In this document: positions 1,283-62,496 of the stretch, piece after piece
How positions within the stretch are numbered: position 1 is the first letter of the stretch
Layout of the letters: the number at the start of each line of letters is the position of its first letter
Sequence record: OQ411014.1
DNA length: 64,000 nt
Reading direction: 5' to 3' (one strand)
DNA from: Escherichia phage EJP2
The notes under the pieces: model-generated
The model's database searches: none
What the model was told of the DNA's origin: nothing
The model's input: only the letters and a program-made list of their open reading frames with translations
Translations under genes and position numbers: made by a program

Positions 1283-1426
1283 ATGAAACTACTCCGTAAT
1301 AGCTTATTTGCGTTTTACATGGATTATCAAATCTCGCTAAAACTAAATCCAGTACTGACAGTACTAGGAACAGCCACTGTTGCAGCTTTCACTGCATGGT
1401 TAGTTACACTGTTTTGTGCTCTATAA
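1283..1426 (+). CDS. putative small membrane protein (47 aa)
   Basis: ATG at 1283 follows an AAGAAGGAAAC RBS and the early-promoter motif at 1225-1254. C-terminal hydrophobic stretch VLTVLGTATVAAFTAWLVTLFCAL. Absent from the ORF track because it is under 60 aa. Confidence 0.4.
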   Translation: MKLLRNSLFAFYMDYQISLKLNPVLTVLGTATVAAFTAWLVTLFCAL

Positions 1427-2071: not shown

Positions 2072-3308
2072 AGGTCGCAAACTCGTAACAATTCGTAAAA
2101 TCAATGCAATTGATGCAATTGAAGGTGCAGATCTGATTGTCAAAGCAACTGTTGACGGTTGGGATGTAGTTGTGAAGAAAGATGAATTCAACGTTGGGGA
2201 TTACTGTGTATTCTTCGAAATCGATTCATTCCTTCCAGTACAGACACCACAATTCGCATTCTTGGCGGGTTCAGGCTGTAAACTCGATGAACAGAATGTA
2301 GAACGTTTCCGTCTACGTACTCGTAAACTTCGCGGGGTAGTCTCTCAAGGCTTGGCTCTACCAGTATCTCTATTTGAGGCAGTACTGGAAGCTATTGACG
2401 AAGCTGGTGGTCATCACCCTGACTCGTACACTACAACGGCACGTGAAGAACTCCTAGTGAGTCTAGAGGCGAATCGTGAAGGCATTGAGCAATTCCTCAA
2501 TGTAACCAAATACGAGCGTCCTGATGAGCGTAATGGCGGTACTGGTGCATCTAAGTGCAAAGCTGCTGGTAACTTCCCTATCGTCATTCCTAAGACTGAT
2601 GAAGACCGTATTCAGAACGTAATGGGTAAGTACTCTCAGACTATGAAAGGTGTTGCATTCCGTAAATCACTGAAACTGGATGGTTCTAGCCAGACAATTG
2701 CATTCATTAGCAATCCTGATTTCTTTGTAGATAAAGTTGATGAAGAAGTCCGTGCATGGAATGAAGAGACTCAAGAACTTGAAGTTGTTGAAGTGAAGCC
2801 ATACCCGTTCCAATGGGAAGATGGTCAGGTAGCAGTATGTTCTCGCAATCTTGCGTTGAAATTTGATGCTGAATCTCACTTCTGGAAAGCAGCACTGAAA
2901 GATGATATTCCAGCACGTCTGAAAGAGTACTGTGTTCGTAATGACCGCCAACTAGCACTACAAGGCGAAGTAATGGGTCCTGGTATCCAAGGGAACCGTG
3001 AAGAACTGACCGAACATCAATTCTACGTATTCCGTATTTGGGATATTGATAATAAATGTTTCCTTGATGATGGTGATTTCTTGACACTATCTGCACTACT
3101 GGGATTGACTACAGTACCGCAAGGTGATATCGTGTACTTCTTCGATGAATACACTTCTATCAAAGAAGCATTGGCATCTGCTGACCACGCATCTATCAAG
3201 CATAAGATCGCGGAAGGCGATGTGTTCAAAAGTGTATCTAAAGTGAATGGTGTTACTGTACACTTCAAGGTAATCAACAACAAATTCTTGCTCAAATGTG
3301 AGGACTAA
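2055..3308 (+). CDS. putative ATP-dependent RNA ligase (N-terminal OB-like domain plus nucleotidyltransferase domain)
   Basis: Covalent nucleotidyltransferase motif I KxDG (SLKLDGSS) and a motif-IV-like QGEVMG. N-terminal GADLIVKATVDGWDVVV...VGDYCVFFEIDSFLP resembles a tRNA-binding OB fold. Start moved from 1992 to ATG 2055, which has an RBS. Confidence 0.5.
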   Translation: MELVTEGRKLVTIRKINAIDAIEGADLIVKATVDGWDVVVKKDEFNVGDYCVFFEIDSFLPVQTPQFAFLAGSGCKLDEQNVERFRLRTRKLRGVVSQGLALPVSLFEAVLEAIDEAGGHHPDSYTTTAREELLVSLEANREGIEQFLNVTKYERPDERNGGTGASKCKAAGNFPIVIPKTDEDRIQNVMGKYSQTMKGVAFRKSLKLDGSSQTIAFISNPDFFVDKVDEEVRAWNEETQELEVVEVKPYPFQWEDGQVAVCSRNLALKFDAESHFWKAALKDDIPARLKEYCVRNDRQLALQGEVMGPGIQGNREELTEHQFYVFRIWDIDNKCFLDDGDFLTLSALLGLTTVPQGDIVYFFDEYTSIKEALASADHASIKHKIAEGDVFKSVSKVNGVTVHFKVINNKFLLKCED

Positions 3309-3916
3309 TGAAGAAAAAATTCGGCGTGGCGATAAATGACGCCGACTATGCTGTAACATCATATGACGATGCTGGTAAACGCCAGCATTGTCCCTTTTAT
3401 CGAAGATGGGCGAGTATGATAAATCGATGTTATGGTGATGTTGGTGCAACATACACTGAATCCTATGTATGTGATGAATGGTTAACCTTCTCTAACTTTA
3501 AGAGATGGATGGAAACACAAAAATGGGAAGGTATGGAGTTGGACAAAGATTTACTTTATATCAACAATAAGGAATATGGCCCAAATACATGTTTATTTTT
3601 ACCAAAGGTTATTAATTCACTATTCGTTGATAGTAAATCGAGCCGTGGTACTAATCCGATTGGTGTATCTTTTGAAAAACGTCGATTGAAATATGAAGCA
3701 TATATATCAATTGATAATAAGAAAAAACATCTTGGATATTTTGATAACCCAATTGATGCACATGTAAAATGGCAACATGCAAAATTGAAAGTATTGGAAG
3801 ATTTCATGAAAACGTTATCTGACCCTATACATATACAAATTGTAGATTTGCGAATCAACAAGCTAAAGAATGATATACAATCAAATATCATAACCGAATC
3901 TTTACATCATTTCTAA
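3308..3916 (+). CDS. AP2-domain protein, homing-endonuclease-like
   Basis: N-terminal YRRWASMINRCY...YVCDEWLTFSNFKRWM motif typical of phage free-standing endonuclease-like genes. C-terminal GVSFEKRRLKYEAYISIDNKKKHLGYFDNPIDAHVKW fits an AP2 DNA-binding domain. TAATG overlap with the upstream gene. Confidence 0.45.
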   Translation: MKKKFGVAINDADYAVTSYDDAGKRQHCPFYRRWASMINRCYGDVGATYTESYVCDEWLTFSNFKRWMETQKWEGMELDKDLLYINNKEYGPNTCLFLPKVINSLFVDSKSSRGTNPIGVSFEKRRLKYEAYISIDNKKKHLGYFDNPIDAHVKWQHAKLKVLEDFMKTLSDPIHIQIVDLRINKLKNDIQSNIITESLHHF

Positions 3917-6139: not shown

Positions 6140-6242
6140 AGAAGACTGGGGCGTAGGTGGGGATTACAATCCATTTGAACCTGAAGAAAAAGAAGAGTCC
6201 CCATCGTGGTGGGATTGGGTTCGTGGATTATTCGGGCGATAA

Positions 6243-6657
6243 TATGAAAATAGAACCTGAACGCATTGCTAAACTAAAACAACTCATGGAACATACGTTA
6301 GAACTTCCACGAGAAAATCTAACATCATTCACAACCAAACCTTGGTGTACAGGTTGGTGGGTTAGTGATTATGTTTATGCTGATTATGACCACAACGAGC
6401 TAATGATTTGTGTACTGAAAAGTGACGTGGTGTGGGGACAGACTGGTAAGTTATACATAAGTTCAAATCACGTTCAATTGATAAAAACTGCACCACCGTT
6501 TACACTTAGCGTTCCGAGAATCAGTACTGAAGAAGAGTATTTTCAACAGTCAACACTTCATGATTTGACAAATTTGGACTTGGATTTCTTTTTGACTTGT
6601 AATAAACTCTATTCACTATGTTGCAGTTTACACACGATTGGGGATACAGATGTATAG
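6243..6657 (+). CDS. paralog-family protein 1 (conserved STEEE-YFQ-LHDL-LDLDFF C-terminus)
   Basis: First of four tandem paralogs. C-terminal ISTEEEYFQQSTLHDLTNLDLDFFL. Start set at ATG 6243 by alignment with paralog N-termini. Confidence 0.55.
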
Positions 6658-7042
6658 TCGTATGCTAAAAGAACTGAATGAACTTCTGGTGAATGTATTG
6701 GGATGGCCTGCTGATAATTACAGATACATCAGAGAACGTGATTTAGGAACCATCAGAGATTGCTGGGTGAATAAATTCACATTCGCAGAAGATAATTGTG
6801 GTGATGTTTCGGTATCTTTGTCTAAATGTTCGGATATTGATTTTTGTTACATCAAGATATTGGAAGATGCAGTGGAGTTCCGAAAAGGATTGTCTACGAT
6901 TTGGAGTTACCCACGATTGAGTACTGAAGAAGAGTTTTTTCAATTATCAGTACTGCATGATACATCTGGCTTGGATTTGGACTTCTTTTTGAATTGCACT
7001 AAACTATACAACCTGGGCAAAATTGCACTAATAGAGGGATAA
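6650..7042 (+). CDS. paralog-family protein 2
   Basis: C-terminal LSTEEEFFQLSVLHDTSGLDLDFFL. ATG at 6650 with GGGGA RBS. Overlaps the upstream stop. Confidence 0.55.
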   Translation: MYSRMLKELNELLVNVLGWPADNYRYIRERDLGTIRDCWVNKFTFAEDNCGDVSVSLSKCSDIDFCYIKILEDAVEFRKGLSTIWSYPRLSTEEEFFQLSVLHDTSGLDLDFFLNCTKLYNLGKIALIEG

Positions 7043-7043
7043 C

Positions 7044-7454
7044 ATGGCTATGAATCCAAATAAAGTAGTACAGCTAAGAGATTTACTACCGTACATTTTA
7101 GAACTTCCTGAGAAAGCACATAAACGATTGTCCTTCCGATATGAAGTTGGTGGTGGGTGGATCAATGACTTTGTGAATGTATTTTTCATCAATGACAAGC
7201 TCACAGTTTCCGTGACTGCTGATGTGGAGTTTAAAACTGGTTACTTCACTATAAGCGAAAATACAGTTGAATATTACACTTCCAATAAAGGTGGTGCGAA
7301 ACCGGAAATAACGTACAAACTTGTCAGTACTGAAGAAGAGCATTTCCAGGAGTCACTAATTCATGATTTAACACTTTTAGATCTGGACTTCTTCCTGAAC
7401 TGTGCTAAAATATACGCACTATGTGATGATTTGATCACGATTGATTATTATTGA
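7044..7454 (+). CDS. paralog-family protein 3
   Basis: C-terminal VSTEEEHFQESLIHDLTLLDLDFFL. GAGGGA RBS. Confidence 0.6.
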   Translation: MAMNPNKVVQLRDLLPYILELPEKAHKRLSFRYEVGGGWINDFVNVFFINDKLTVSVTADVEFKTGYFTISENTVEYYTSNKGGAKPEITYKLVSTEEEHFQESLIHDLTLLDLDFFLNCAKIYALCDDLITIDYY

Positions 7455-7462
7455 GGATTATA

Positions 7463-7864
7463 ATGTACAATAGTGTAATGATGCAGCATTTCACTACAAT
7501 GATTGGTGCTGCCATGAATAGTCCTAAACTGAAAACGTTACGCATCATTGATGGTGCGTGCTGGATTACAGAAAATGCTTTTATCTGGATGCATGAGAGT
7601 CGTGATAAATTAACTATCACAATAAAGCCATCATTTAGTTTAGAAGAGATACTACAACATAGTAGTATTGATATCAAACATGATAGTATAGATATTCGTA
7701 ACTCCCATAACCCAAAAGGTATTAATATCCCACGTATTAGTACTGAAGAAGAGTACTTTCAACAAAGTACTATTCATGATTTATCAAATTTCAACCTTGA
7801 TTTTTTCAAACAATGTGCAGTACTGTTCGATAAAACATGGGATCAACTTACATGGTGTAAGTAG
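7463..7864 (+). CDS. paralog-family protein 4
   Basis: C-terminal ISTEEEYFQQSTIHDLSNFNLDFF. ATG at 7463 with GAGGA RBS. Confidence 0.55.
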   Translation: MYNSVMMQHFTTMIGAAMNSPKLKTLRIIDGACWITENAFIWMHESRDKLTITIKPSFSLEEILQHSSIDIKHDSIDIRNSHNPKGINIPRISTEEEYFQQSTIHDLSNFNLDFFKQCAVLFDKTWDQLTWCK

Positions 7865-10882: not shown

Positions 10883-11215
10883 ATGGCTACTGAAAAAGCA
10901 CAAATCGTCGTAAAACTACTACACATTGCAGGTCAAGGTCCAGTACTAGCAGTACTACAAGGTGAAACCAACGATTCCCTAATCACCATGCATCCAGCAC
11001 AACTTGGTCAAGATGAGAATGGCGATATTCAAATCCTATCCTATCTTGGTGGTCTAGTTGCTGAAGATGCACCAGTAGTATTCATGAAGTCTAACATTGT
11101 TGCGGTATGTGAAGTTGAACCGACTCTAGGTAAAGAATACGTTTCTGCTGTAGAAGCATTGACAAAATCCTCTGTTGGTGTTATTATGCCTCCAGAAAAG
11201 AAAATCATTCTATAA
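10883..11215 (+). CDS. hypothetical protein
   Basis: ATG at 10883 with AAGGA RBS. No recognisable motifs. Confidence 0.5.
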   Translation: MATEKAQIVVKLLHIAGQGPVLAVLQGETNDSLITMHPAQLGQDENGDIQILSYLGGLVAEDAPVVFMKSNIVAVCEVEPTLGKEYVSAVEALTKSSVGVIMPPEKKIIL

Positions 11216-11621: not shown

Positions 11622-11682
11622 TAAAATAAAAAAGCATCTCTAAATACAGTAACAGTAAACGTTACTTATGAAGAGGTGCTTT

Positions 11683-12468
11683 ATGGCATATGATTATCAG
11701 GGCAACCCAGAAGCCCCAAATTACGACCACAGAGAAAAATTAAAAGATGTAATTACTACACGTCTAGGAGCTGGGGCAGTAGAAGTAGAAATTACTGATG
11801 ACCAGTTAGAGTTAGCTATTGACATGGCAGTAGAGAACTACAGAGCGTGGTCAGGCAATTCCAAAGAAGAATCATTCTTGCATATGAAACTATTCCCATC
11901 TGAATCAGTCTATGTGTTACCAACAGAAGTTGAAATCGTTCGCAGAATTTACCGCAGGGGTAATGGTGTAGTATCAGGAAACAGTAGTACTGTTGACCCA
12001 TTTAGTCTTGCTTATAGCAATACTTATCTATTATCGGCAGTTCGTGGTAGTACTGGTGGTGGTCTATTAACTTATGACTTGTATCACCAATTTGATGAAA
12101 CTGTAGCACGTCTATTCGGTCGTGAGATTATATTCCAATGGAACCCAGTTAACAAAAAACTAATTATTGATCGTGACATTCGTGGTGAAGAAGATGTACT
12201 ATTACATGTGTACCAAAACGTACCAGAGCCAATGCTATTCAAACAGCAAATGACTTATCCTTGGTTGCGTGATTGGGCTATGTCTGAAGCGATGCTAATG
12301 TTAGGTCGTAACCGTTCTAAATTTGCTACCCTTCCAGGGCCACAAGGTACATTCAGTATGGATGGTAATGAACTTCGCCAGGAAGCAATGGCAATGCAAG
12401 AGAAATTAGAGCAACAAATCCGTAATTACAGAGATGGTTCAATGCCATTATCTTTCATTATTGGATAA
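11683..12468 (+). CDS. hypothetical protein, possibly virion (neck/tail) associated
   Basis: ATG at 11683 with GAGGTG RBS. Sits just upstream of the dNMP kinase and tail sheath genes. Function not recognised. Confidence 0.5.
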   Translation: MAYDYQGNPEAPNYDHREKLKDVITTRLGAGAVEVEITDDQLELAIDMAVENYRAWSGNSKEESFLHMKLFPSESVYVLPTEVEIVRRIYRRGNGVVSGNSSTVDPFSLAYSNTYLLSAVRGSTGGGLLTYDLYHQFDETVARLFGREIIFQWNPVNKKLIIDRDIRGEEDVLLHVYQNVPEPMLFKQQMTYPWLRDWAMSEAMLMLGRNRSKFATLPGPQGTFSMDGNELRQEAMAMQEKLEQQIRNYRDGSMPLSFIIG

Positions 12469-12504
12469 AGTACTTTTACAGTACTGAAGTTTCAATACAA
12501 TACT

Positions 12505-12540
12505 AGAGATGCACTATAATGGTGTCATCTCTTTTCTTTT
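12505..12540 (+). terminator. rho-independent terminator
   Basis: AGAGATG ... CATCTCT stem followed by a T-rich run. Confidence 0.45.
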
Positions 12541-13285: not shown

Positions 13286-15931
13286 ATGGCTGATCTATTA
13301 TCACCAGGTGTAAGTGTAACAGTCACTGATGAGTCAATGAGCGGTGCTTCTGCTCCAGGGACTGTCCCACTTATCATCATTGCAACTGCACAAGACAAAT
13401 TGGTTCCAGGCAGCACATCTGTTGCACCAGGGACTCTCAAAGCGAACGCTGGTAAACTACAGCTACTAACTTCACAAAAAAATGCCCTTGACGTATTCGG
13501 GACACCTATTTTTCAGAAACATTTAGGTTCAGTAGTTCAAGGCGACGAATTAAACGAATACGGCTTACATGCTGCTTATTCATATTTGGGAATTGCAAAC
13601 CGTGCTTATGTAGTACGTGCTGACATCGACCTAGCACAGCTAGCACCAACTGGTACTGCACCAACTGGCCCTGTTACCAACGGTAAACTATGGTTAGATA
13701 CTACTGCAAGTCAAGTTGAAGCATATGTTGCTAAGAAAGATGACCCACAATCATTCTACGACTGGCAACTAAAACCAGTACGCATCGTTAGTGCGGCTGA
13801 TATTGCTGATGTTGATACTATTGGTCTAAACGTTGATGACCTAGTACTACGTTACAACCCAGCGAATGGTCAACTACTAATGTACAAATTTTCTGCTGCT
13901 GGTCTAGTTCAAGTTGAAACTTACCTATCACCAATCAACAAAGTACCATCAGGTATTGAATACAATGAAGGTGATATTTGGATTCGTGATGGTTTCACTA
14001 AATCTGGTTCTAACTACTTCGGTACTCGTTTTGTTATTAAACGTTATGCTTCTCTAACTCGCGTATGGCAGAATGTTGATACCTTTACTGGTACAAGTTT
14101 CTATGAAATTGAATCTAAAACTGGTGTAATGTCGTCTTCTTACATCACTGCACTATTCGATTATGATAGTAATAGTTTCTCCTTCTATATGCAACGTGCT
14201 TCATTACCTACCGTTACCGCTGGTGCAGTTCCAGTTGGTCAATCTTCGGTAAACACTGCTGCTGTTGATGGTTTCTTAACTGTTAATTATCTAAATAAAT
14301 CCGTTAAAGTACTAGCAGTACTACAAGGTCAACTAATTAATGCTGCTGTTATCATTGAAAATTTGAATAAGAGTTCAGTACTAATTAACGCAGGTTTCAC
14401 ATTCACTGGAACACAAGATGTTGTCATTACTAACCGTAATGGATATAGTTTTAAAGTGAGTCAATCAGACGAAGTGATTTTTAGCCAACAAGAACTCAAG
14501 AAACTAACTCAAGATAGCAGTAACTATGCACTAGTTAACGTTAACAACCTAGTAACTTCAGCAACCGAACCACGTGCTGTTGCACCAGAAGGTACTTACT
14601 GGTATGACTTTAGTAACTCTGACAATCTTGAAGTAACTCTTTATACTGCTAATACCAGTACTGAAGATTGGGATCTAGTAATTGCTAGTGACAAGTACAT
14701 CCAAGTTGATGAACCTGCTGCTGACCGTTCTTTCTGGGTTCTACCACTATCTCAAGGTATTGATGGTTATGAGTTCTATCGTAACGTAAATGGTGAGTGG
14801 ATTAAACTAGATCCAGCAGACCAAAGTACTCTAAACGGTATGATTTACGAAGACTTCAATGACGAAGTACCAAGTGCTAACCTATACCAAAACGGTATGC
14901 TTGCAATTGACCTAGGCAATACTGAAGGTGTTGTTAAACAAATGGTTAATGGTAAGTGGGTAGTAGTAAGTGGTGTTGCTATTGATGGTTCTGGTCTATT
15001 TGGTCGTCATGCACAACGTCAAATGATTGTTGAAGCTATGGCATCTGTTATCGTTAGCAACGAAGCGATTCGTTCTGAGACTGTCGATTTCAACCTAGCG
15101 GTTGCTCCTGGTTATGTTGAACTACTAGATGAACTAGTAACTCTAAACACTGACCGTAAAGAAACATCTTTCTTGATTACTGATGTTCCAGCACGTTTGA
15201 AACCTTCCAGTACTGACGTACAAGAATGGGCTACTAACGCTAACAACGCTCCAAGTAACGGTGATATCGGTCGTGTAACTGCATACGATTACGCTGCACA
15301 ATACATGGGTTGGTGCTTAGGTACTAACGTTGATGGTGAAGAAGTTGCTATTCCTGGTTCTTCTGTTGCACTACGTACCTATGCGTACAGTGACAGTGTT
15401 TCTTATGTATGGTATCCACCAGCAGGTACTGCACGTGGTGTTGTTTCCAACGCTGCTTCAGTAGGCTTCATCAATGATGAAGGCGAATATGAGCCAGTAG
15501 TTTACAACCAAGGCCAACGTGATATCATGTATATCAACAAGATTAACCCGATTGCAATGCGTCCAAACCGTGGTCTACTAGTTTATGGTGATAAGACACT
15601 AACTGCGAACGAAACTTCAGCACTAGCGAACGTAAACGTAGCACGTCTAATCGTATACATTCGTCGTCAACTAGACATTCTTGCTGAACCATTCCTATTC
15701 CGTCTAAACACCCCAAGTACTCGTCAGGAGTTCGCTGGTGTAGTGAACAGCTTCCTAGCAGAAATCGTTCAACTAAATGGCCTATACGACTTTACTGTTG
15801 TGTGTGATGAATCAAACAACACCCCAACTCGTATTGACCGTACTGAACTATGGATGGATATTGCGATTCAACCAACTCGTACAATTAACTACATTTATGT
15901 ACCAATTCGTATCGAGAAAACTCAAGCATAA
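13286..15931 (+). CDS. tail sheath protein (T4 gp18-like, 881 aa)
   Basis: N-terminus MADLLSPGVSV and C-terminus VVCDESNNTPTRIDRTELWMDIAIQPTRTINYIYVPI match contractile sheath termini. GGAGG RBS and downstream terminator. Confidence 0.92.
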   Translation: MADLLSPGVSVTVTDESMSGASAPGTVPLIIIATAQDKLVPGSTSVAPGTLKANAGKLQLLTSQKNALDVFGTPIFQKHLGSVVQGDELNEYGLHAAYSYLGIANRAYVVRADIDLAQLAPTGTAPTGPVTNGKLWLDTTASQVEAYVAKKDDPQSFYDWQLKPVRIVSAADIADVDTIGLNVDDLVLRYNPANGQLLMYKFSAAGLVQVETYLSPINKVPSGIEYNEGDIWIRDGFTKSGSNYFGTRFVIKRYASLTRVWQNVDTFTGTSFYEIESKTGVMSSSYITALFDYDSNSFSFYMQRASLPTVTAGAVPVGQSSVNTAAVDGFLTVNYLNKSVKVLAVLQGQLINAAVIIENLNKSSVLINAGFTFTGTQDVVITNRNGYSFKVSQSDEVIFSQQELKKLTQDSSNYALVNVNNLVTSATEPRAVAPEGTYWYDFSNSDNLEVTLYTANTSTEDWDLVIASDKYIQVDEPAADRSFWVLPLSQGIDGYEFYRNVNGEWIKLDPADQSTLNGMIYEDFNDEVPSANLYQNGMLAIDLGNTEGVVKQMVNGKWVVVSGVAIDGSGLFGRHAQRQMIVEAMASVIVSNEAIRSETVDFNLAVAPGYVELLDELVTLNTDRKETSFLITDVPARLKPSSTDVQEWATNANNAPSNGDIGRVTAYDYAAQYMGWCLGTNVDGEEVAIPGSSVALRTYAYSDSVSYVWYPPAGTARGVVSNAASVGFINDEGEYEPVVYNQGQRDIMYINKINPIAMRPNRGLLVYGDKTLTANETSALANVNVARLIVYIRRQLDILAEPFLFRLNTPSTRQEFAGVVNSFLAEIVQLNGLYDFTVVCDESNNTPTRIDRTELWMDIAIQPTRTINYIYVPIRIEKTQA

Positions 15932-16051: not shown

Positions 16052-16741
16052 ATGGCAAATATGATAGATAAATATGGAGTCCCACTTCCTGGTGGTGGTC
16101 GCATTTCCATGAAGCAACCTAAAGCGAAATATAAGTTTCGTGTTATCTTCTTTGGCTTTGGTGTCGGGGATGATGGCAACTACATTACTGTAGATACAAA
16201 TACTGTTGGTGCAGTTCATGTGGAACACGAAGATGTAACCGTACATAGCTATAACAGTTCTGCACACTATAAAGGTAAGTACACTTGGAGTCCAATCGAA
16301 GTTGCTTTTCGTGATAGCGTTGGTAACATGAGTGCGAAAGCAGTTTACAACCAAATGCGTAAAGAATTTAACTACTACACCCAAGAATCCCGTATGACTG
16401 ACTCACAGTTCAAGTTCGAAATGTGGATTCAAGAGCTAGACGGTTCTAACAGTGAATCCACTACCAACCTATTCGAAGGTACTCTAAGTACTTGGGTATG
16501 TCAGGGTTGCTTTATTTCTGACTCTAACTTCGGTGAATGGGATTACTCCAGCAGTGATGCACAAGTAATCACCATGACTGTACGACCAGATGGTTGTGCA
16601 AAACTAGGTCCAGAAGGTCAACCATTCGGTGATGAAGTTTCCGGTAACGGTACTCCAGAAAACGCTACTAGTATTAGTGGTGCACAAACTGCAATTTCAA
16701 GTACTTCTATTACTGATAGTAACTTCTACAACGAACAATAA
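16052..16741 (+). CDS. tail tube protein
   Basis: Immediately downstream of the sheath gene. Paralogous to the next gene (MANMIDKYGVPLP...KAKYKFRV). Confidence 0.65.
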   Translation: MANMIDKYGVPLPGGGRISMKQPKAKYKFRVIFFGFGVGDDGNYITVDTNTVGAVHVEHEDVTVHSYNSSAHYKGKYTWSPIEVAFRDSVGNMSAKAVYNQMRKEFNYYTQESRMTDSQFKFEMWIQELDGSNSESTTNLFEGTLSTWVCQGCFISDSNFGEWDYSSSDAQVITMTVRPDGCAKLGPEGQPFGDEVSGNGTPENATSISGAQTAISSTSITDSNFYNEQ

Positions 16742-16767
16742 TAATAAAAGTACTTTTCAGTACTACA

Positions 16768-16801
16768 AAAGCCTTGGAAAAACATTCCGAGGCTTTTTTT
16801 A
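16768..16801 (+). terminator. rho-independent terminator after tail tube gene
   Basis: GCCTTGG ... CCGAGGC stem followed by TTTTTTT. Confidence 0.55.
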
Positions 16802-16846
16802 TGCTAAATAAATGATAATATGTTTTTTACAGATAGAGGTTACTTT

Positions 16847-24130: not shown

Positions 24131-24154
24131 CAAACCAATAAAGTGTGATATAAT
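24125..24154 (+). promoter_or_regulatory. early promoter (TTGTGA -35, TGn TATAAT)
   Basis: TTGTGA 24125-24130, TG 24146-24147, TATAAT 24149-24154. Confidence 0.45.
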
Positions 24155-24301: not shown

Positions 24302-24330
24302 TTGACAAGGCATTAAGAAGTACGTATAAT
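24302..24330 (+). promoter_or_regulatory. perfect-consensus sigma70 promoter
   Basis: TTGACA 24302-24307, exactly 17 bp, TATAAT 24325-24330. Upstream of the MoxR/VWA operon. Confidence 0.6.
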
Positions 24331-27298: not shown

Positions 27299-27326
27299 GA
27301 GATATCATAAGAAATTGTGATATAAT
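27297..27326 (+). promoter_or_regulatory. early promoter (TTGAGA -35, TGn TATAAT)
   Basis: TTGAGA 27297-27302, TG 27318-27319, TATAAT 27321-27326. Confidence 0.5.
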
Positions 27327-32995: not shown

Positions 32996-35900
32996 TTATA
33001 CGTTACGTTGTGCAATAAACACGTCAATGGTAGAACCTACACCGCTGTATACTAACTGACAGATAGATACAGAGTTTGGAGTGGTGTTAATCGCAGTATC
33101 AGCACCAATCACACTATATGGAGGTGGTAGAGTTAGCGAGTGGTTACCAGTTGCGTCTTGTGTTACATATACGAACCAAGAACCTGCATATCCTGGGGTG
33201 ATTGGTAGGTTACCAACGGTAGTATCACCTGTTAGGGTAATGTTATACACGTTAGAAGTACCATCAGGAGTCCAAGTACCAGTTGCAGAAGCAGCCGGAG
33301 CAGCTTTAACTAGGTATTTGCTAGTACTTACCGATTCAGTTACTAGGTCGCCGATATCAGCAGTTAGTGTACCAGTTACTGTTAGGTTGTTAGCATTAAT
33401 TGTACCAGTACTATCAATATCAACAGCAGTTACTTTACCAGTGAAATCGGAGGTTCCAGATACAGTAAGGCTTGTAGCAGTGATTGCACCTGTGGTTACA
33501 GCAGCTAAGGTAGAAGTACCAGTTACTGTTAGAGTATCAGTTTCTAGACCGCCAGTAATTGCAGCACCATCAGCACTAACAGTTAGTTTACCACCAGTAG
33601 TTAGTGTAGTACCTACGCTCGCCGCAGCAGAGAAAGTAGCAGTACCAGTGCTGGATAGAGTACCAGTTACTGTGGTTGCACCAGTAATTGCAGCACCATC
33701 AGCACTAACAGTTAGTTTACCACCAGTAGTTAGTGTAGTACCAACTGTTGCAGCACCAGTAACTTCAAGAGTTACACCTTTCAAGAAGGAAGTGGAAGTA
33801 ACAGATTGTGCAACTAGATCAGAAGTACTTTGGTCTAGTGTACCAATGATACGACCATTAACAGTAAAGTCACCAGTACAAACTGCGTTACCGTTAAGCT
33901 GTAGGTTGTTGTTTACAGAACCACTTGCACCGATAACAGCAGAGTCAATTGTTGCTTGACCTTTAACTTCGAGTGTAGTACCAACAGATACCGCTTGGGA
34001 AGTTGTTACAGACCGTGGAGAAATATCACGACCAGTTAAGTCGATTTGAGCAGTGATAGTACCATCAACATCCAAGTTACCTGTGATGTGGGTGTTACCA
34101 GAAATCTCAGCAATATATTCTTCTTCGTCCCATACTAGAGTACCTACGTGTAGGTTTGTGGTAGAGGTCTTCTTGAAAGAAGCGGTTGCAGTTGCAGCAC
34201 CGTTCTGTGCGATATTACCAGCAGTTACTGTTAGGTCACCAGTAGTAATTGTTGCACCGTTATCAGAAGTTACAGAACCAAATTTACCTGCACCTGAAGC
34301 AGTGATTGCACCACCTAGGGTTGTTGCACCAGTAGTTACGGTTAGACCGTTATCAGAGGTTACAGAACCAAATTTACCTGCACCAGTACTGGTTAGAGTA
34401 CCACCAACAGTTGTGTTGCCAGTTACACCTAGTGTAGTACCAACAGTTGCACCAGCAGCAGTAGAAACACTATTAACAGATAGGTCAGCACCCGCGAGGT
34501 TTAGACCACCAGCAGGAGTGAATGTACCATTAACGGTCATGTCACCAGTTGCTACCGTGTTACCTGTGATATCTAGTGATGCTAGAGTTGCTTTACCTGA
34601 AGTACTTAGAGTACTAACAGATGTTGCATCAGCAGTTACATCAGCTAGGGTAGATGCACCAGTTACATTTAGTGTAGTACCGATATTTGCACTGTTTAGA
34701 GTTGCTAGACCAGAAGTACTTACAGTACTTAGGGAAGTATTACCAGATACACCTAGGGTTGTAGTAACGCTTGCAGCGTTCGCATTGACAGTTCCTAGAG
34801 TAGATACGCCAGTTACTTCTAGAGTAGTGTTAACTTTAGCACCGTTTAGTGTTGCCAAACCAGTAGTCGTTAGTGCATCAGTAGTTACATCAGCTAGGGT
34901 AGATGCACCAGTTACATTTAGAGAACCACCAACAGTTGTGTCGTTAGTACTGGATAGTGTTAGTGCACTTAGGTTAGTTGCACTTAGGTCGAATTGACCA
35001 TCAACAGTCAAATCACCAGTTACATGAGCGTTACCGAGAGAGTTAAGAGACTTAACAGTTACATCAGTTGTGCTTAGGTCGATTGCTCCAGCAGTTAGTG
35101 TACCAGTTGCATGGAAATCACCAGTTACGTTGGTAGATTTAGCAAGTTGTACAGTAGTTCCAGCAGTTGTAAAGGAAGCAGCAGATACAGCACCAGTTGC
35201 GGATACAGATGAAGCACCAATTGCACCAGCAGTTACACCAGCAAGAGTAGTTTCACCAGTTACTGCTAGAGTACCAGAAGCAGTTACATCAGCCAGGGTT
35301 GAAGCGGCAGATACAGTTACAGCACCTAGAGTTGCTTCGTCGCTTGCTAATTTAGGGAATGTATTTGTTTTAGCAGCATCAGTAGATACAAAACTTAAAG
35401 CAGTTACATCAGCACCAGATAAGTCAACAGTACCAGATACAGCTAGGTTGCCACCGATTGTTGCACCTTCAGTAGTCGTAATAGACTTGGAAGCAATATC
35501 AACAGAAGATAGGTCAAAACCACCAACTGGGGTAAATGTCCCATTAACTGTTAGGTTTTTATCAGCAACAACATCACTTGCTAGAGTTACTGTGCCAGCA
35601 CCAAGTGGAGCAGCTTGAACAGTTGCGGATTCTACCGAAGCACCTTTAACAATACCAGTTGCAGTAATGTTTGTTGCAGAGATATCACCAATGGATTCAA
35701 TACCGCCATTAGGCTTGAAAGAACCAGTTACAGTTAAGTCTTTTGCAGCGACTGCATTACTTGCCAATGTTACTGTACCAGCACCAGCAGCAGCACCTTG
35801 AATAGATGGAACAGTTGCAGTTGCAGCACTTACATCACCAGTTGCAGCGAAAGATACAGCACTGATATCACCAGTTGCATCAATATCACCAGCATTTACA

Positions 35901-38605
35901 GTACCAGCAGTGATGGTAGTACTAGATAGAGTTGGGATGGTGCTTTGTGCAACAGTTGCAGTAATAGATTTAACATTAATATCCGCAGCACTTAGGTCGA
36001 ATGTACCGTCAACAACAAGGTTTCCACCAACGTTTACGTTACCTGTAGTGGTTACAGATGCAGCATCAACAGCAGTAGTACTTAGGTCAATTGAAGCTGG
36101 GGTTAGAACACCAGAAATAGTTACGTCATTTGCAAAAGTGGTATTACCAGTAATGCTTGGAACAACTAATGAATCAGCAGTTACTGAAGCTAATGTTGAA
36201 GCACCAGTTACGCTTAGAGATGCAGCAGATGCAGCACCGATTGCAGAAGCACCAGTTACATTTAGAGAACCACCATTAACTTCACCAGTTGCAGTGACAG
36301 AAGCAGCAGTTACAGCACCAGTTGCCGCGACAGATTCAGCAGAAACGCCAGCAGTTGCTACAACAGAGTTCGGTGCGATATCAAGACCGTCAACGTTTGC
36401 AGCAGCAGTTACACCAGTAGTAGTACCAGTTACAACTAGGTCTTTAACAGTTACAGTTTGACCATTAACAGTTACGTTACCACCAATTGTTGCACCAGCA
36501 GTTGCAGTGATTTCACCTGTTACGCCTAGAGTACCACCAACAGTTGCGTTGCCAGTTACAGCAGCGTTACCACCTACAGATAGATCAGTACCAACAGTAG
36601 TGGTGGTTACAGATTCTAGAGTATTACCATTAAGGGCAGCAGTTGCTACAACAGAGTTAGGTGTTAGGTCTTGACCACTAACATCAACAGTTAGACCAGT
36701 TACAACACCAGTAAATTCAACATCAGCAAGAATTGATTTACCATCAACTTTTAGTTGTGGTTGTGCAGTACCGATAGTACTGTTACCTTGGATGTGAACA
36801 TAATCCATAGTGGATTTGCCTAGTGCAGTTAGACCAGCAGTACCACCAACGTTACCAACAGATGCGTTCTGTAGTAGTGCTTTATCAGCTACAAGGTCAG
36901 AAGTTGCGATTTTGTATGGTTCGATGCTGGATTTGGTGTCGCTTGGGCGAGCCGGATCGTTATATGCAAATTGTAAAATACCGTGGTTACCAGATTCGCC
37001 ATCAATAACGTTTAGAGTACTAAAGTTAGCGATTGAAGTTCTTGCACCAGTTAAGTTACCAGATAGAGTTAGGTTTTGTAGAGTACTTGGACCAGAAACA
37101 TTTAGAGATGTTGCATTAATATCAGTAAATGAAAGACCAGATACTGCACCAGTAATAATCAAATCACCAACTGTGGTTTTTTGTAGTACTGTATCACCAG
37201 TTACTTCTAGTTTTGGTGTTGCTTCACCAATAGTACTGTTACCAGTAATGCTTAGGTAATCAATAGTTGCTTTACCTAGTGCTTTTAGACCAGCAGTACC
37301 TGCTACATCACCAACTTCAGCAGCTTTAAGAACAGCTTTGTCAGCTACTAGATCAGAAGTTGCCATTTTGTATGGTTCGATACTTGATTTTGTGTCATTT
37401 GGACGAAGTGTGTCATTATAAGCGAATTGTACAATGCCGTGGTTTCCAGCAGTACCGTCATCAACAGTAAAAGTACTGAAGCGTGCTACTGAAGAGTTAC
37501 CACCAGTTAGGTTGCCACTCATGTTAACGCCAGCTAGAGTTGATGCACCAGATACGTTTAGAGTTGCTACGTTTAGGTCAGTGAATGAAAGACCAGATAC
37601 TGCACCAGTAATTGTTAGGTTACGAACTGTAGTATCTTGTAGTACTGATTTACCAGTTACTTCTAGGAAGTTATCAGCAGTACCAATAGTACTGTTACCA
37701 GCAATTTTTAGGTAATCGATTTTTGCATTACCGAGAGCGTGTAGACCGTGGTCATCGCCACCACCAACAACACCAACGGTTGCTACGTCAGTTTGGATAT
37801 CGTTGGTATCAATTTCTTGAGTACTAACTTTGTACGGCTCAAGGCTAGTTTTGATATCAGAAGGACGTAGTGGGTCGTTATATGTGAACTGAACACTACC
37901 AGTTTGACCGGAAACACGATATTGGTTTACGGATACAGTACTGTTTGCACCAGTTACGTTACCTTGGATAGTAGTTGCACCTTTAATGTTTACGTTGTTA
38001 AGATCACTTAGTGTTTTAACTTCGATGTTATTGAAAGTACCAGCATCCATAGTGTAAGTGCCACTTAGAGTACCATTGATTTCCACATCACCTAGTGTTG
38101 TTTTGCCAGTTACGTCTAGAGTACTGTCAAGTACTGCTGCACCTTTAGCATGTAGGGCTTCAGTAGTTGTACTACCTAGAGCTACAGTACTAGTTGGTTC
38201 AGTAGAAAGATTGCCATTAACTTTTGCATTACCAGATACGGTTAGGCTATCAGCAGAAGTTTCTTTAAATGAAGCACTACCAGTAGTTTGAGTAATATTT
38301 GAATTAAAAGTTGCTTCGGCATCAACAGCCAAAGTACCTTTAACACTTACTGTATCAGTTAGAGCGTCACCAAGAACGGTATTACCAGATACGTTAAGAT
38401 TTCCGAGATTAGAAGTACCAGTACTTGTAATGTCAGCGAATTGAGCAGAACCCGTCACTGTGATAGCAGTGAATGTGGCATCTGCGAAAGAAACAGTGCC
38501 TTCTACAGAAAGATTTTGCTTGAATACAGCATTACCCTTCAATAGTAGGTCTTTGTCAATCGTTGCTCCACCGAGAACGCCTAGATCAGTTTTAATTGAA
38601 TACAT
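32996..38605 (-). CDS. giant repetitive tail fiber protein (1869 aa)
   Basis: GGAGGG RBS. Long runs of VTG/SGN/ATG beta-helix-like repeats and three ~150-aa tandem repeat units. Confidence 0.7.
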   Translation of the reverse strand: MYSIKTDLGVLGGATIDKDLLLKGNAVFKQNLSVEGTVSFADATFTAITVTGSAQFADITSTGTSNLGNLNVSGNTVLGDALTDTVSVKGTLAVDAEATFNSNITQTTGSASFKETSADSLTVSGNAKVNGNLSTEPTSTVALGSTTTEALHAKGAAVLDSTLDVTGKTTLGDVEINGTLSGTYTMDAGTFNNIEVKTLSDLNNVNIKGATTIQGNVTGANSTVSVNQYRVSGQTGSVQFTYNDPLRPSDIKTSLEPYKVSTQEIDTNDIQTDVATVGVVGGGDDHGLHALGNAKIDYLKIAGNSTIGTADNFLEVTGKSVLQDTTVRNLTITGAVSGLSFTDLNVATLNVSGASTLAGVNMSGNLTGGNSSVARFSTFTVDDGTAGNHGIVQFAYNDTLRPNDTKSSIEPYKMATSDLVADKAVLKAAEVGDVAGTAGLKALGKATIDYLSITGNSTIGEATPKLEVTGDTVLQKTTVGDLIITGAVSGLSFTDINATSLNVSGPSTLQNLTLSGNLTGARTSIANFSTLNVIDGESGNHGILQFAYNDPARPSDTKSSIEPYKIATSDLVADKALLQNASVGNVGGTAGLTALGKSTMDYVHIQGNSTIGTAQPQLKVDGKSILADVEFTGVVTGLTVDVSGQDLTPNSVVATAALNGNTLESVTTTTVGTDLSVGGNAAVTGNATVGGTLGVTGEITATAGATIGGNVTVNGQTVTVKDLVVTGTTTGVTAAANVDGLDIAPNSVVATAGVSAESVAATGAVTAASVTATGEVNGGSLNVTGASAIGAASAASLSVTGASTLASVTADSLVVPSITGNTTFANDVTISGVLTPASIDLSTTAVDAASVTTTGNVNVGGNLVVDGTFDLSAADINVKSITATVAQSTIPTLSSTTITAGTVNAGDIDATGDISAVSFAATGDVSAATATVPSIQGAAAGAGTVTLASNAVAAKDLTVTGSFKPNGGIESIGDISATNITATGIVKGASVESATVQAAPLGAGTVTLASDVVADKNLTVNGTFTPVGGFDLSSVDIASKSITTTEGATIGGNLAVSGTVDLSGADVTALSFVSTDAAKTNTFPKLASDEATLGAVTVSAASTLADVTASGTLAVTGETTLAGVTAGAIGASSVSATGAVSAASFTTAGTTVQLAKSTNVTGDFHATGTLTAGAIDLSTTDVTVKSLNSLGNAHVTGDLTVDGQFDLSATNLSALTLSSTNDTTVGGSLNVTGASTLADVTTDALTTTGLATLNGAKVNTTLEVTGVSTLGTVNANAASVTTTLGVSGNTSLSTVSTSGLATLNSANIGTTLNVTGASTLADVTADATSVSTLSTSGKATLASLDITGNTVATGDMTVNGTFTPAGGLNLAGADLSVNSVSTAAGATVGTTLGVTGNTTVGGTLTSTGAGKFGSVTSDNGLTVTTGATTLGGAITASGAGKFGSVTSDNGATITTGDLTVTAGNIAQNGAATATASFKKTSTTNLHVGTLVWDEEEYIAEISGNTHITGNLDVDGTITAQIDLTGRDISPRSVTTSQAVSVGTTLEVKGQATIDSAVIGASGSVNNNLQLNGNAVCTGDFTVNGRIIGTLDQSTSDLVAQSVTSTSFLKGVTLEVTGAATVGTTLTTGGKLTVSADGAAITGATTVTGTLSSTGTATFSAAASVGTTLTTGGKLTVSADGAAITGGLETDTLTVTGTSTLAAVTTGAITATSLTVSGTSDFTGKVTAVDIDSTGTINANNLTVTGTLTADIGDLVTESVSTSKYLVKAAPAASATGTWTPDGTSNVYNITLTGDTTVGNLPITPGYAGSWFVYVTQDATGNHSLTLPPPYSVIGADTAINTTPNSVSICQLVYSGVGSTIDVFIAQRNV
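33552..33742. repeat. 62-bp exact direct repeat pair within the fiber gene
   Basis: Identical 62-mers at 33552-33613 and 33681-33742, encoding duplicated SVGTTLTTGGKLTVSADGAAITG. Confidence 0.65.
34257..34383. repeat. near-exact direct repeat of about 37 bp within the fiber gene
   Basis: CGTTATCAGARGTTACAGAACCAAATTTACCTGCACC occurs at about 34257 and 34347, encoding GAGKFGSVTSDNG twice. Confidence 0.55.
36560..37950. repeat. three tandem ~450-bp repeat units inside the giant fiber gene
   Basis: Encoded segments (I/S)VQF(T/A)YND..RP(S/N)D.K(T/S)S(L/I)EPYK ... IDYL.I.GNSTIG recur three times. The nucleotide similarity is visible but diverged. Confidence 0.6.
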
Positions 38606-38664: not shown

Positions 38665-38672
38665 TATTTATA
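38665..38672 (-). promoter_or_regulatory. T4-type late promoter box TATAAATA
   Basis: Exact TATAAATA on the minus strand upstream of the giant fiber gene start (38605). Confidence 0.4.
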
Positions 38673-46477: not shown

Positions 46478-46507
46478 TTGAGACAAATGCAAAAGATGTG
46501 ATATAAT
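46478..46507 (+). promoter_or_regulatory. early promoter (TTGAGA -35, TGn TATAAT)
   Basis: TTGAGA 46478-46483, TG 46499-46500, TATAAT 46502-46507. Upstream of the ClpA-like gene. Confidence 0.5.
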
Positions 46508-48844: not shown

Positions 48845-48878
48845 ATAAAAAGGAGCCTTTCGGCTCCTTTTTTTTATT
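48845..48878. terminator. bidirectional terminator between ClpA-like gene and giant gene
   Basis: A-run, GGAGCC-TTTC-GGCTCC, T8 run. Confidence 0.6.
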
Positions 48879-51800
48879 TGATTAATCCAATAAGAATTAC
48901 AGGTGCAATATCCAAACTATCAGAATAAGTACTCAATGGGATTGGTTCATAACCATCACCGTATACTGCAATTTCATTAGTGTTACCTAAATTCAATCCA
49001 GTACTGGTATACGTTACATCCTTTTCGTAATAATTCTGAACAGTACCGTTATAAGCTCGAACAACGAAGTTGTTTTTGCGAACAAGCATTTGTTCTGCAT
49101 TAGATAGGATAATATCGTCAGGTACAACACCAGGCATTGTAGCGATACCATTTTCATAGGTCATGGTGCTTGCCATCTTCGGCTGACTTACGTGAGTGAA
49201 GCTGTCAAACATTGACTTATAAACAACAGTAACAGTACTGTTAGTGTTAATATACACACCATCAACTAGTGGTTTACTATAGATCCAAGAACCATTGTTA
49301 GCAGTAGGGTTAATTTCAGCTACATCGTATTCAAATACTGAAATTTCCAACGCGTCGGTCATTTTAGTACGAACCAATTCACTTAGTACACCTTTACCGT
49401 ACACTGGTAGGTAATATCCATTATCAACCACAGTTCCATCTTCTAGTGTTTGTGTCTCATTAGTACTGTACCATACATCATAGTCATTGGTAGTTAGTTC
49501 TGGTTCATAATTACCACCAATTAAGGAAGTGTCATAGAACACATCATAATCTAGAGCATCGACTCTGTAAGAACGGTTATTAGTATAACGAGTAATTCCA
49601 CCAGCACTAAACTCTGGGTCATTGAAAGATGTAACTCTAACAATGTTGATACTAGTTGGTTTGTTCTGGTTGTAAAGTGATTCATCAGTACTGTTATAAG
49701 TACTAGTGAAAGTTAATCCACCAATAGTTACAGTATTACCAGATACCGAAGTTACTTTAAACAACTTAGGACGATTAGCATCTTTAATTGTTGCTACACT
49801 CAATACAGTTTTCCAAGAACCATCGTTAATAGCGACTGCGTAATCTGAATTGTCTGGGACAAATACAGCTACCGTTTCGCCAACAACGAAATCATTATCA
49901 CCGTCAAGTTCAACAACACCACTTACTGAAGTTACGTTCTTAATACGATATGAATATTGAATTTCATTCTTTTCCAAAATGCTTCTATTCATGTATTCAA
50001 GAGCAACATCATAACGTGGAATACTTACAAGGGCTTCTGAGCGATTATATGGGTTTTGTACGATATAACCTTCAATATTAAAGTTACCTTGATCACGTAA
50101 TTGTGTCTGTACTGAAGTATCAAATCCATATCCATCAACTGTGAATCTTAGCTGTGCCATATCACGTTTAGATGGGTTAAGTTCTGAAATGTCTACAAAT
50201 ACAGGATCGTTAGTACTGTTAGCGACACCAACAACGGAGTTAATAATAGTTTTAGTTTGTGATTCTAGAGCTAAGTTATCGAATGCGTTTTTATCATCAA
50301 AGAATACTTCTTTATTCAAGCCTGACATGATTTGTAAGAAATCACTATATAGTGGGTTCTTATCATCTTCTGGAACGTCATCAAGTGATGGTTGGCTTAG
50401 GCGAACCATATCCCCATCAGTGATATACACTTCTTCCATATATTCTTCTATGCCAACATTCGAAGGAATGCTATAATCTTTTCCTGGAGTAGTTTCACTC
50501 ATTAGGAAAACATATTTCCTAGGCATCAACACTACTGCATAAGCATCAACATCAAGATTCTCTAATACTTTCTCTGCTGCACTATACGGGTCAGTTTCAT
50601 CAGGATTATAAGTCCCTCTAAGTGCTGATAGAACGTGTACTGCATCAGTATAGAAACGATTAGATTCTGGATTATCATCAGTTTCAGGGATTACATATTT
50701 CCATGTATATAAACCGTATTCATATTCCATGTACTCTAGAATCTCAATGTGAGAGAATCCAGGGTTTGCTTCCTTAACTTGATCATAAATCAAATCATAC
50801 ATTGGTTTGCTGTAAGAGATATAACCATAGTTTTCACCATTGCTTGCACTAAATCCAAACGGCAACCTTGTGCTTGGGTTATCACTCAGTACTAGACCTT
50901 TAAATGGACAACCTACTTCAGAACCAATAGTTTCATCAGATTTGGAAGTTGTTAGCTTCAAACGGTTTGAAAGCGTGTTGTACTGAACATAGTTGCGTAC
51001 TTCACTAACCGATTCAGATTTCTCTTCTGCTTCTGCAATTACACGATTAAGTGTAGCTGTAAATTCATCAGATGCTTCAACATCATTAATTAGTGTTGCA
51101 TACATTTGGTCTAAACCATATTTCAAACCACTACTAATATTCATGTTCGGATAGTACTGCGTAATACCGTTCATGATTAATGTTTCCAACTCAGCATTAT
51201 TAATTTCAGGGAAAGTATATGCATAACGCTGGAGCATGTAGTGGGAGCCTTTTACAAGGAAGTCACCAGTATTAGATTGGTATTTCTTGTTCACGTTTTC
51301 TAGTGTTGTTATATCTGCCATATCGGAAGATGGTTTGCACTGGAAGTTGTCAAAGTCAAGAATAACATCAATCTCTTGGAAACGGCGGTTTGGTAGTACG
51401 AAGTTATTTGGTAGTGAGCCTACGATTTCCCACTTCTGACTTACATCGTTGAATTGAGCATATTCGTAATCCCAAATATCTTTTTGTGTTTTAACCCAAG
51501 CACCATCAACATAGATATAACCGTTAGGATCTAAATCGTTTAATAGACCGTTGATTTCATCTTCATCAGATGTCTTCTGCTCTATTTGTGAACGGATTTT
51601 AGTTCTGTATGGTTTCACTTCTTCAAAGTACTGTACGATTTCATTTATTAAATTACCATCAGTAGTTGATCTTTGTTGTAGTGATTGGTCTAGACCAATA
51701 ATATAAATGTAAGAGGTTTTGAATACCCAGTCCACGACTTTCTGCTCAGTGTGTACGTACTTAACCATGTCAAATACTACAGTACTTTGTACAGAGTTGA

Positions 51801-58887: not shown

Positions 58888-58922
58888 TTTATTCTCCATA
58901 AAATTCATTTCTTCATTTGTTT

Positions 58923-62426: not shown

Positions 62427-62496
62427 AATTAATCCTTGCGTTCTAATATGAGTTATATATCTTACGTTTTCTATGCACACGTATTATGAATTTATT

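Follow-up and report, generated by a model that had tools for sequence, protein, structure and literature searches.

Two short intergenic elements in Escherichia phage EJP2 (OQ411014.1) raise the question of what a paired hexamer is doing behind structural genes. Within the 64,000 nucleotides analysed (the window throughout this text), AGTACTTTTACAGTACT and AGTACTTTTCAGTACT, here termed doublet 1 and doublet 2, each contain two copies of AGTACT (Table 1), and the original prediction regarded each as two half-palindromes one helical turn apart, the geometry of an operator for a dimeric regulator. Our comparison of sequences led to a different reading, in which we place about half of our confidence: the doublets would be local copies of (C)AGTACT(G), a motif that saturates the genome and is the full site of a putative symmetric DNA-binding protein, and they would be recent extras. 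That they are not a gene-specific operator is part of the same judgement and shares its confidence.

AGTACT is the commonest hexamer of the window, with 193 copies, or one per 331 bp, where dinucleotide shuffles give 25.0 ± 4.5; the extended palindrome CAGTACTG occurs 55 times, one per 1164 bp, against 0.8 expected. The enrichment is about 9-fold for the hexamer and about 70-fold for the octamer. Copies were placed on a 58-gene map spanning 96% of the window, with about 2.0 kb of true intergenic DNA. The motif is not confined to a few regulatory sites, as an operator would be: 187 copies (97%) are intragenic, read in frame as AGT-ACT (Ser-Thr; 107 copies), xxA-GTA-CTx (54) or xAG-TAC-Txx (26), and the density is alike in genes of the + and − strands (2.9 and 3.2 per kb).

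The excess within genes was measured against synonymous-codon shuffling inside each gene, which keeps the proteins and the codon usage. Shuffled genes held 48 ± 6 copies (maximum 67), so that the observed number is about 4-fold in excess, and each reading frame is enriched 3.4–5.2-fold, the counts of 107, 26 and 54 comparing with 31, 6 and 10 in the shuffles. The octamer is found 53 times within genes, against 4.8 ± 2.2. AGT-ACT encodes 64% of Ser-Thr dipeptides, against 18% expected, and the Ser-Thr dipeptide is itself 1.4-fold over-represented. Codon usage or dipeptide bias as the cause is ruled out by the shuffles and by enrichment in all frames; together with the Ser-Thr excess, these results indicate a pressure at the level of nucleotide sequence, of sufficient strength to shift protein composition.

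The bases flanking the hexamer are symmetric as well, with C at position −1 in 91 copies and G at +1 in 101, and the symmetry holds when the copies of frames 0 and 2 are read in the mRNA sense, which is what a two-fold symmetric reader of duplex DNA predicts and an RNA signal does not. In this respect the original prediction was right in kind: a palindromic core, symmetric flanks, selection at the DNA level and use in the promoters of relatives are the behaviour of a protein-recognition element. It was mistaken about the unit, AGTACT being already a complete two-fold symmetric site and not a half-site. A drive by very-short-patch (Vsr-type) repair was considered and rejected, as one-mismatch neighbours are not depleted and AGTACC and GGTACT are themselves 3–4 times enriched.

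AGTACT is the sole strongly enriched palindromic hexamer in the window. GCGC is absent (0 against 90 expected), as it is in RaK2 (0 against 31) and Hallingskeid (0 against 80), and GGTACC, CTGCAG, CTCGAG, CGATCG, CCATGG, CAGCTG, AGGCCT and AGCGCT are all missing from the window. Palindrome avoidance is a known trait of phage genomes and is extreme in this one; for a single palindrome to stand about 9-fold above expectation against such a background implies a strong selective agent, one that has been at work in no fewer than four genera of 350-kb phages and in one unrelated phage family, at a cost in codon and amino-acid choice.

The window belongs to a RaK2/121Q-type jumbo myovirus with 74–79% DNA identity to Erwinia phage Hallingskeid and the Escherichia phages JNE01, 121Q and PBECO4; Serratia phage BF and Klebsiella phage RaK2 are more distant relatives. 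The AGTACT excess is common to the relatives from all four of these host genera. Hallingskeid has 122 copies in a 45-kb structural region and 275 and 194 in two 50-kb early stretches, one of which holds 65 copies of CAGTACTG; JNE01 has 113 in 47 kb, 121Q has 91 in 45 kb, and RaK2 has 105 in 43 kb, together with 72 in 11 kb of its early region. Serratia phage BF carries 117 copies in 46 kb, yet only 6 of CAGTACTG. The excess over expectation is 8–17-fold in Hallingskeid, 7-fold in JNE01 and 7–19-fold in RaK2. Outside this group the pattern breaks down. The Xanthomonas relative XacN1 has 0 copies in 50 kb against 12.6 expected, T4 has 6 against 16.9 with normal GCGC, and 50 kb sampled from E. 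coli K-12 contain 3 AGTACT (0.06 per kb) and 342 GCGC (6.8 per kb), so that the phage density of about 3–5 per kb is about 50–90 times that of the E. coli sample. Counts for 121Q, Serratia phage BF and E. coli come from direct sequence search. XacN1 has its own set of forbidden palindromes, unlike that of the enterobacterial relatives, with GATC at 0 against 194 expected over positions 150–200 kb.

Individual sites are also retained. AGTACT sites of the window are conserved in 43% of cases in Hallingskeid and 41% in JNE01, compared with 23% and 17%, respectively, for all hexamers. Conservation at about twice the hexamer background points to purifying selection on individual sites, though more than half of them turn over.

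A use for the motif is seen in the promoters of the relatives. Contigs were collected by scanning IMG/VR with the doublet 16/17-mer, which gave 72 loci, about 23 of them AGTACT-rich and two of these from RaK2; the contig of the window itself was not recovered. The early region of RaK2 and a 109-kb contig contain promoters of the form aaaAGTAC-TTGACA-N9-cc-AGTACTG-TATAAT, with the two AGTACT copies 20–21 bp apart; RaK2 has 12 such dual-AGTACT promoters in 11 kb, and contig L018 carries the form. The first 22 kb of Hallingskeid hold about 19, which fall into two classes, AGTACTTGCAt-N9-cAGTACTGTATAAT with a spacing of 20 and AGTACTATTGACA-N9-AGTACTGGCATAAT with a spacing of 22, and all are correctly oriented and stand 25–40 nt before a Shine–Dalgarno sequence and ATG. 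In each arrangement one AGTACT adjoins the −35 element and the other the −10 element (TATAAT or CATAAT), 20–22 bp apart (L011 from RaK2; L018; L014; L079, Hallingskeid 5–20 kb), and dozens of copies are present per genome in the relatives. Across genera, then, sigma-70-type early promoters incorporate AGTACT at both of their recognition elements. The offset between AGTACT and the promoter hexamers varies by 1–3 bp between classes, which suggests a separate reader rather than RNA polymerase. The presence of AGTACT on both early-promoter elements offers a direct experimental handle.

The dual-AGTACT arrangement was absent from both strands of the window, which consists mainly of structural genes, and the doublets themselves do not conform to it, their copies being 10–11 bp apart with no −10 hexamer after them; neither strand of the doublets offers a −10/−35 fit of any kind. 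The window's sole early-type promoter, at 24302–24330, is TTGACA-N17-TATAAT with AGTACG, one mismatch from the motif, abutting the −10 element. It is situated in an intergenic region of 318 bp, as is one of four identical extended −10 boxes, TGTGATATAAT (TRTGnTATAAT type; 1244–1254, 24144–24154, 27316–27326 and 46497–46507). These boxes have no recognizable −35 element and no AGTACT inside, and may be a middle-class promoter. T4-type late boxes (TATAAATA; GCTAAATAA) stand upstream of structural genes at 16803–16811, 27254 and 40815 on the + strand and at 38672 and 58930 on the − strand, in keeping with the annotation of a gp55-like late sigma factor in relatives.

The motif is also shared by a second family, of about 55 viral contigs of 26–35 kb that are unrelated to the jumbo phages and were found by the 16/17-mer scan and a terminase-based search (L071 and L082–L134, for example IMGVR_UViG_3300011942_000006; some come from isolate-genome assemblies). 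They encode small and large terminase subunits, a head–tail joining protein, a portal protein, a fused protease–capsid protein, a 1446-residue tail fibre that resembles enterobacterial phage fibres in patches, and a weakly matching primase-like protein. AGTACT occurs in them at 5–20 times expectation, most commonly as CAGTACTG, and GCGC is at 0 in nearly all. Distant terminase relatives with 65% GC show neither the AGTACT excess nor the GCGC absence. In the one member scanned for promoters, L095, no TTGACA-N-TATAAT promoter and no pairing of AGTACT at 20–22 bp was found. Ten open reading frames (ORFs) of L095, about 10 kb, gave no Pfam match and no methyltransferase; nine of these were rescanned against PHROGs and two matched, one a weak primase/replication hit and one a terminase small subunit. 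Most other ORFs of the family have neither a Pfam nor a PHROG match.

Against this background the two doublets can be placed. Both lie behind stop codons and ahead of terminators, as originally described, doublet 1 abutting its TAA and doublet 2 starting 7 nt past it, and downstream of each comes a terminator hairpin followed by the promoter-like and Shine–Dalgarno region of the next gene. By similarity to annotated relatives, the genes on either side of doublet 1 encode the head–tail adaptor/neck protein and a deoxynucleoside monophosphate kinase, and those around doublet 2 encode tail-tube proteins 1 and 2, the second tail-tube gene starting with ATG at 16848, downstream of the GCTAAATAA box. 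Neither doublet overlaps or abuts a promoter, both being placed between stop codon and terminator with the promoter-like boxes beyond the terminators. When the tail-tube spacer is aligned across five phages, the terminator and the GCTAAATAA box do not vary, the sequence from stop codon to terminator does, and doublet 2 is present in the window alone, being absent from Hallingskeid, JNE01, 121Q and RaK2. Doublet 1 is missing from the orthologous spacer of Hallingskeid. Conservation at orthologous positions, which an operator would lead one to expect, was therefore not observed.

Pairing as such is in excess in the window. The intergenic DNA has 4 copies of AGTACT (6 expected from the overall density), all of them within the two doublets, and with 0.054 intergenic pairs expected at 9–11 bp, the probability of two or more is 0.0014. 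An apparent third intergenic pair (1351/1360) is actually inside an unannotated ORF (1283–1426), which has 47 codons, encodes the hydrophobic peptide MKLLRNSLFAFYMDYQISLKLNPVLTVLGTATVAAFTAWLVTLFCAL and is preceded by a TGTGATATAAT box and a Shine–Dalgarno sequence. Over the whole window there are 14 pairs at 9–14 bp against 3.5 expected (P = 2e-5; about 0.003 with paralogous cases merged), and 2 pairs at 15–29 bp against 8.3 expected; AGTACT spacing overall is slightly more regular than random (coefficient of variation 0.88). Several close pairs are held by four tandem paralogous genes (6157–7864; about 135–165 codons each) that share AGTACTGAAGAAGAGT. Beyond the peaks at 9–11 and 20–22 bp no helical phasing was seen, only a codon-phase periodicity, and unbiased samples of close pairs showed diverse spacers and no preference for TTTC/GAAA. 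The original prediction had staked itself on paired copies exceeding what AGTACT density alone would give; they do so in the window, but no excess at 9–14 bp was found in about 240 kb of relatives, and 13 of the 14 close pairs of the window are not conserved as pairs there.

In the reading we favour, selection would keep (C)AGTACT(G) dense throughout the DNA of the RaK2/121Q-type phage and its enterobacterial relatives. The putative reader could come from the phage, as an early or a virion protein, or from the host, and would act at early promoters and, through site density, mark phage DNA apart from host DNA. The doublets would be recent, lineage-specific additions in the sole unconstrained DNA available, the variable spacer between stop codon and conserved terminator; each would provide a neighbouring pair of sites facing the same side of the helix, and the weak 6-bp hairpin in the 3′ untranslated RNA would be a by-product of the palindrome. 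As to who reads the motif, early promoters must be active ahead of phage protein synthesis and the motif recurs in an unrelated family, which favours a reader common to the host cell; the lack of the motif in T4 and the different flank preferences of the lineages (BF, RaK2) argue against a general host effect. The one match in the search for a reader gene common to the jumbo phages and the 26–35-kb family was an HNH-endonuclease-like C-terminal domain, which Hallingskeid does not have, and that candidate was rejected. The gene in question, ORF 3308–3916, matches only the C-terminal half of PHROG 953 ('HNH endonuclease'), carries no AGTACT, has homologues with 37% identity in JNE01 and in one 26–35-kb contig, and is probably all or part of a mobile gene acquired recently.

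Several observations weigh against the favoured reading. No reader protein was found, and the observations fit binding and covalent modification alike. Pairing may have a local cause, given that relatives lack the excess of close pairs. In L095 the motif is hyper-abundant without promoters of the dual type, so a promoter role is not the whole reason for its abundance. The two doublets share ATAA-AGTACTTTT-(A)-CAGTACT in addition to their position after a stop codon, a resemblance that may reflect a dedicated small element or an episode of copying. In RaK2 (L042) and in contigs L053 and L075, clear intrinsic terminators have the identical 16/17-mer at their apex, which favours a role in RNA; in other contigs the doublet 16-mer alternatively sits just upstream of the AGTACT associated with a promoter's −35 element. 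Finally, a palindrome appears in mRNA from either transcribed strand, which makes an RNA-level target conceivable.

A wider proposal is that richness in AGTACT and freedom from GCGC form a sequence 'barcode' by which proteins of the infected cell tell phage from host DNA. We advance it tentatively and consider it doubtful. The E. coli sample does reverse the pattern on both counts. A dedicated AGTACT reader, possibly with a GCGC-directed nuclease, would on this proposal replace T4-style base modification. Were the proposal true, the 26–35-kb family would have converged on the barcode or be taking advantage of it, as a satellite or regular co-infecter of jumbo phages might. AGTACT density and GCGC absence in any case provide a simple metagenome signature for such phages and possible satellites. 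Finding the reader could show how jumbo phages that are reported to have neither T4-type hydroxymethylcytosine/glucosyl DNA modification (PMC3622015) nor a phage nucleus (PMC11895373) organize, time or protect their DNA.

Among the alternatives, the one that survives best, though an unlikely one, is that AGTACT or its GTAC core is modified by a phage methyltransferase or another enzyme, the doublets being extra targets; the mark might distinguish parental from replicated DNA, time promoters or serve packaging. The nearest precedent, HIP1, has a methylated core (PMC6604393), the clade encodes N6-adenine and C5-cytosine methyltransferases, in some cases with a third (PMC7247149, PMC11895373, PMC3622015), and sites in the −35/−10 region could render promoters sensitive to methylation. 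Statements by the RaK2 authors, for which data were not shown there, read as Dam-type and CpG methylation, neither of which fits AGTACT (PMC3622015). One-mismatch neighbours carry no Vsr-like signature, and the roughly 10 kb of L095 yielded no methyltransferase, all of which counts against modification.

That the doublets were selected as RNA, as 3′ untranslated stem-loops built from a favoured hexamer to protect 3′ ends, direct processing or help termination, stands next, and we regard it as improbable. AGTACT is self-complementary, so each doublet is an inverted repeat that folds as a 6-bp RNA stem (−4.9 kcal/mol in each case; z about −2.4 to −3.2), directly upstream of a strong terminator; the preferred spacings of 9–11 bp correspond to a stem with a loop of 3–5 nt, and the terminator apices of RaK2, L053 and L075 described above belong here. 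As intrinsic terminators in their own right the doublets fall short, with 6-bp stems, 2 G-C pairs and no T-run. The stems are weak, have no complementarity in their flanks and no U-tract of their own, and would be redundant, the real terminators following doublet 1 by 20 nt and doublet 2 by 3 nt. The orthologous spacers of relatives are without the doublets, most close pairs lie in coding sequence, and a scan with Rfam 15 covariance models at E ≤ 1 found nothing on or close to the two doublets.

Considerably less probable is that the doublets have no local function and are tolerated by-products of whatever creates AGTACT copies, for instance short-patch gene conversion or copying between sites, in a spacer free of constraint. 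An identical doublet-bearing 22-mer, AGTACTAGCAGTACTACAAGGT, is found in two unrelated genes (Table 1), and relatives differ in sequence at both places and have neither doublet; together with the sequence that the doublets share, this suggests that short stretches were copied within this lineage. Compared with the other phages, the intergenic doublets have the look of insertions, and the pair excess is confined to this lineage. On the other side, no known mechanism copies elements of 15–22 bp, and single sites are under purifying selection, so that their presence is not neutral.

The local operator of the original prediction, a dimeric regulator on two AGTACT half-sites one helical turn apart controlling the adjacent genes, comes last and is very improbable: that all four truly intergenic copies fall in doublets with a shared spacer and context, and that relatives use AGTACT in promoters, speaks for it, but the hexamer is a full palindrome, the bulk of copies are intragenic and about 190 other copies would titrate a low-copy regulator, the doublets stand upstream of terminators clear of the late-promoter-like elements, they are absent from the relatives compared at those positions, and promoter copies are spaced at 20–22 and not 10–11 bp, which makes a dedicated operator for the flanking genes unlikely.

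Table 1 Coordinates of the AGTACT doublets and the features around them.
Feature	Coordinates	Strand	Remarks
Window-wide AGTACT set	1–64000	.	193 copies, 55 of them CAGTACTG
Doublet 1, AGTACT-TTTAC-AGTACT (AGTACTTTTACAGTACT)	12469–12485	.	11 bp start to start; RNA stem 6 bp, loop 5 nt
Doublet 2, AGTACT-TTTC-AGTACT (AGTACTTTTCAGTACT)	16749–16764	.	10 bp start to start; RNA stem 6 bp, loop 4 nt
TAA stop codon, head–tail adaptor/neck gene (ORF 11668–12468)	12466–12468	+	Identity by synteny with annotated relatives
TAA stop codon, first tail-tube gene (ORF 16052–16741)	16739–16741	+	
Intrinsic terminator downstream of doublet 1, AGAGATGCACTATAATGGTGTCATCTCT then TTTCTTTT	12505–12540	+	Hairpin 12505–12532 plus T-run
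Intrinsic terminator, 13-bp stem then T7	16767–16800	+	Hairpin 16767–16797; conserved in 5/5 aligned phages
Late-promoter-like box GCTAAATAA (compare T4 TATAAATA)	16803–16811	+	Invariant in five phages
Doublet AGTACT-GAC-AGTACT	1351–1365	+	Within unannotated 47-codon ORF 1283–1426; encodes PVLTVL
Doublet AGTACT-AGC-AGTACT in 22-mer AGTACTAGCAGTACTACAAGGT	10942–10963	+	In 113-residue ORF
Second identical 22-mer AGTACTAGCAGTACTACAAGGT	14308–14329	+	In tail-sheath gene

The window further contains three very large ORFs, at 48874–58908, 32996–38605 and 58965–62480 (− strand), of 3344, 1869 and 1171 residues. The 1869-residue product aligns with the annotated tail fibre of Hallingskeid and 121Q, and the other two are assumed to be tail-fibre or structural proteins. 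Repeats of the Thr-Gly-Ala type in these ORFs account for secondary k-mer excesses such as GCACCAGT.

The searchable literature, which leaves most subscription journals outside its coverage so that a prior mention is possible, yielded no description of the motif or of dual-AGTACT promoters, and several known systems invite comparison. The stoperators of cluster A mycobacteriophages and the inverted repeats of phiC31 are regulator-binding sites present in many copies genome-wide, often near stop codons or in intergenic DNA. They number in the tens, measure 13–17 bp, are essentially intergenic and are found in temperate phages whose repressor is known, the stoperators being orientation-dependent; AGTACT, by contrast, is a 6–8-bp palindrome at about 3 sites per kb, 97% intragenic, in a phage that is probably virulent and has no known repressor. 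Chi is an over-represented 'self' octamer whose density marks the genome against foreign DNA, and it is asymmetric, strand-skewed and read by RecBCD; AGTACT is palindromic and hence has no orientation. T-even-type phages have sigma-70 early promoters with extra conserved positions. The promoters of the relatives resemble these in placing the motif in strong −35/−10 promoters, with A/T-rich DNA upstream, before many small early genes, and differ in that the extra elements are two copies of a palindrome that is hyper-abundant in coding DNA too.

Among host proteins, SlmA, which mediates nucleoid occlusion in E. coli, binds GTGAGTACTCAC and needs G1, T2 and a purine at position 3 (PMC3020112). 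The central six bases of its site are AGTACT, and it is a dimeric helix-turn-helix protein reading a palindrome at many sites in the same host group. The phage motif differs in preferring C at −1, where G is rarest (18 of 193), and in having no GT/AC outer flanks; the window holds 0 matches to GTRAGTACTYAC and 8 half matches among 386 half-sites, and SlmA was rejected as the reader. The LexA (SOS) box CTGT-N8-ACAG was rejected too, with 1 match against 1.5 expected and no AGTACT pairs of the window at 18-bp spacing.

The closest precedent is HIP1, GCGATCGC, of cyanobacteria, an octameric palindrome found once per 1131 bp, with a methylated core, maintained by selection and of unknown function (PMC6604393). 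The AGTACT motif has the statistical hallmarks of the HIP type: it is a perfect palindrome of 6–8 bp, exceeds in coding DNA what codon usage and protein sequence give, and is shared across a lineage with selection on its sites. Like HIP1, its octameric form recurs at a spacing of about 1.1 kb, in and between genes, as a trait of a lineage with turnover of sites. It differs in being viral, of another sequence, rare in the host sample and not linked to a known methyltransferase; its hexamer core far outnumbers the octamer, it is found in promoters, and it exists alongside total avoidance of other palindromes. Finding the protein that reads AGTACT would give the first tractable model for the long-unexplained iterated palindromes of the HIP type.

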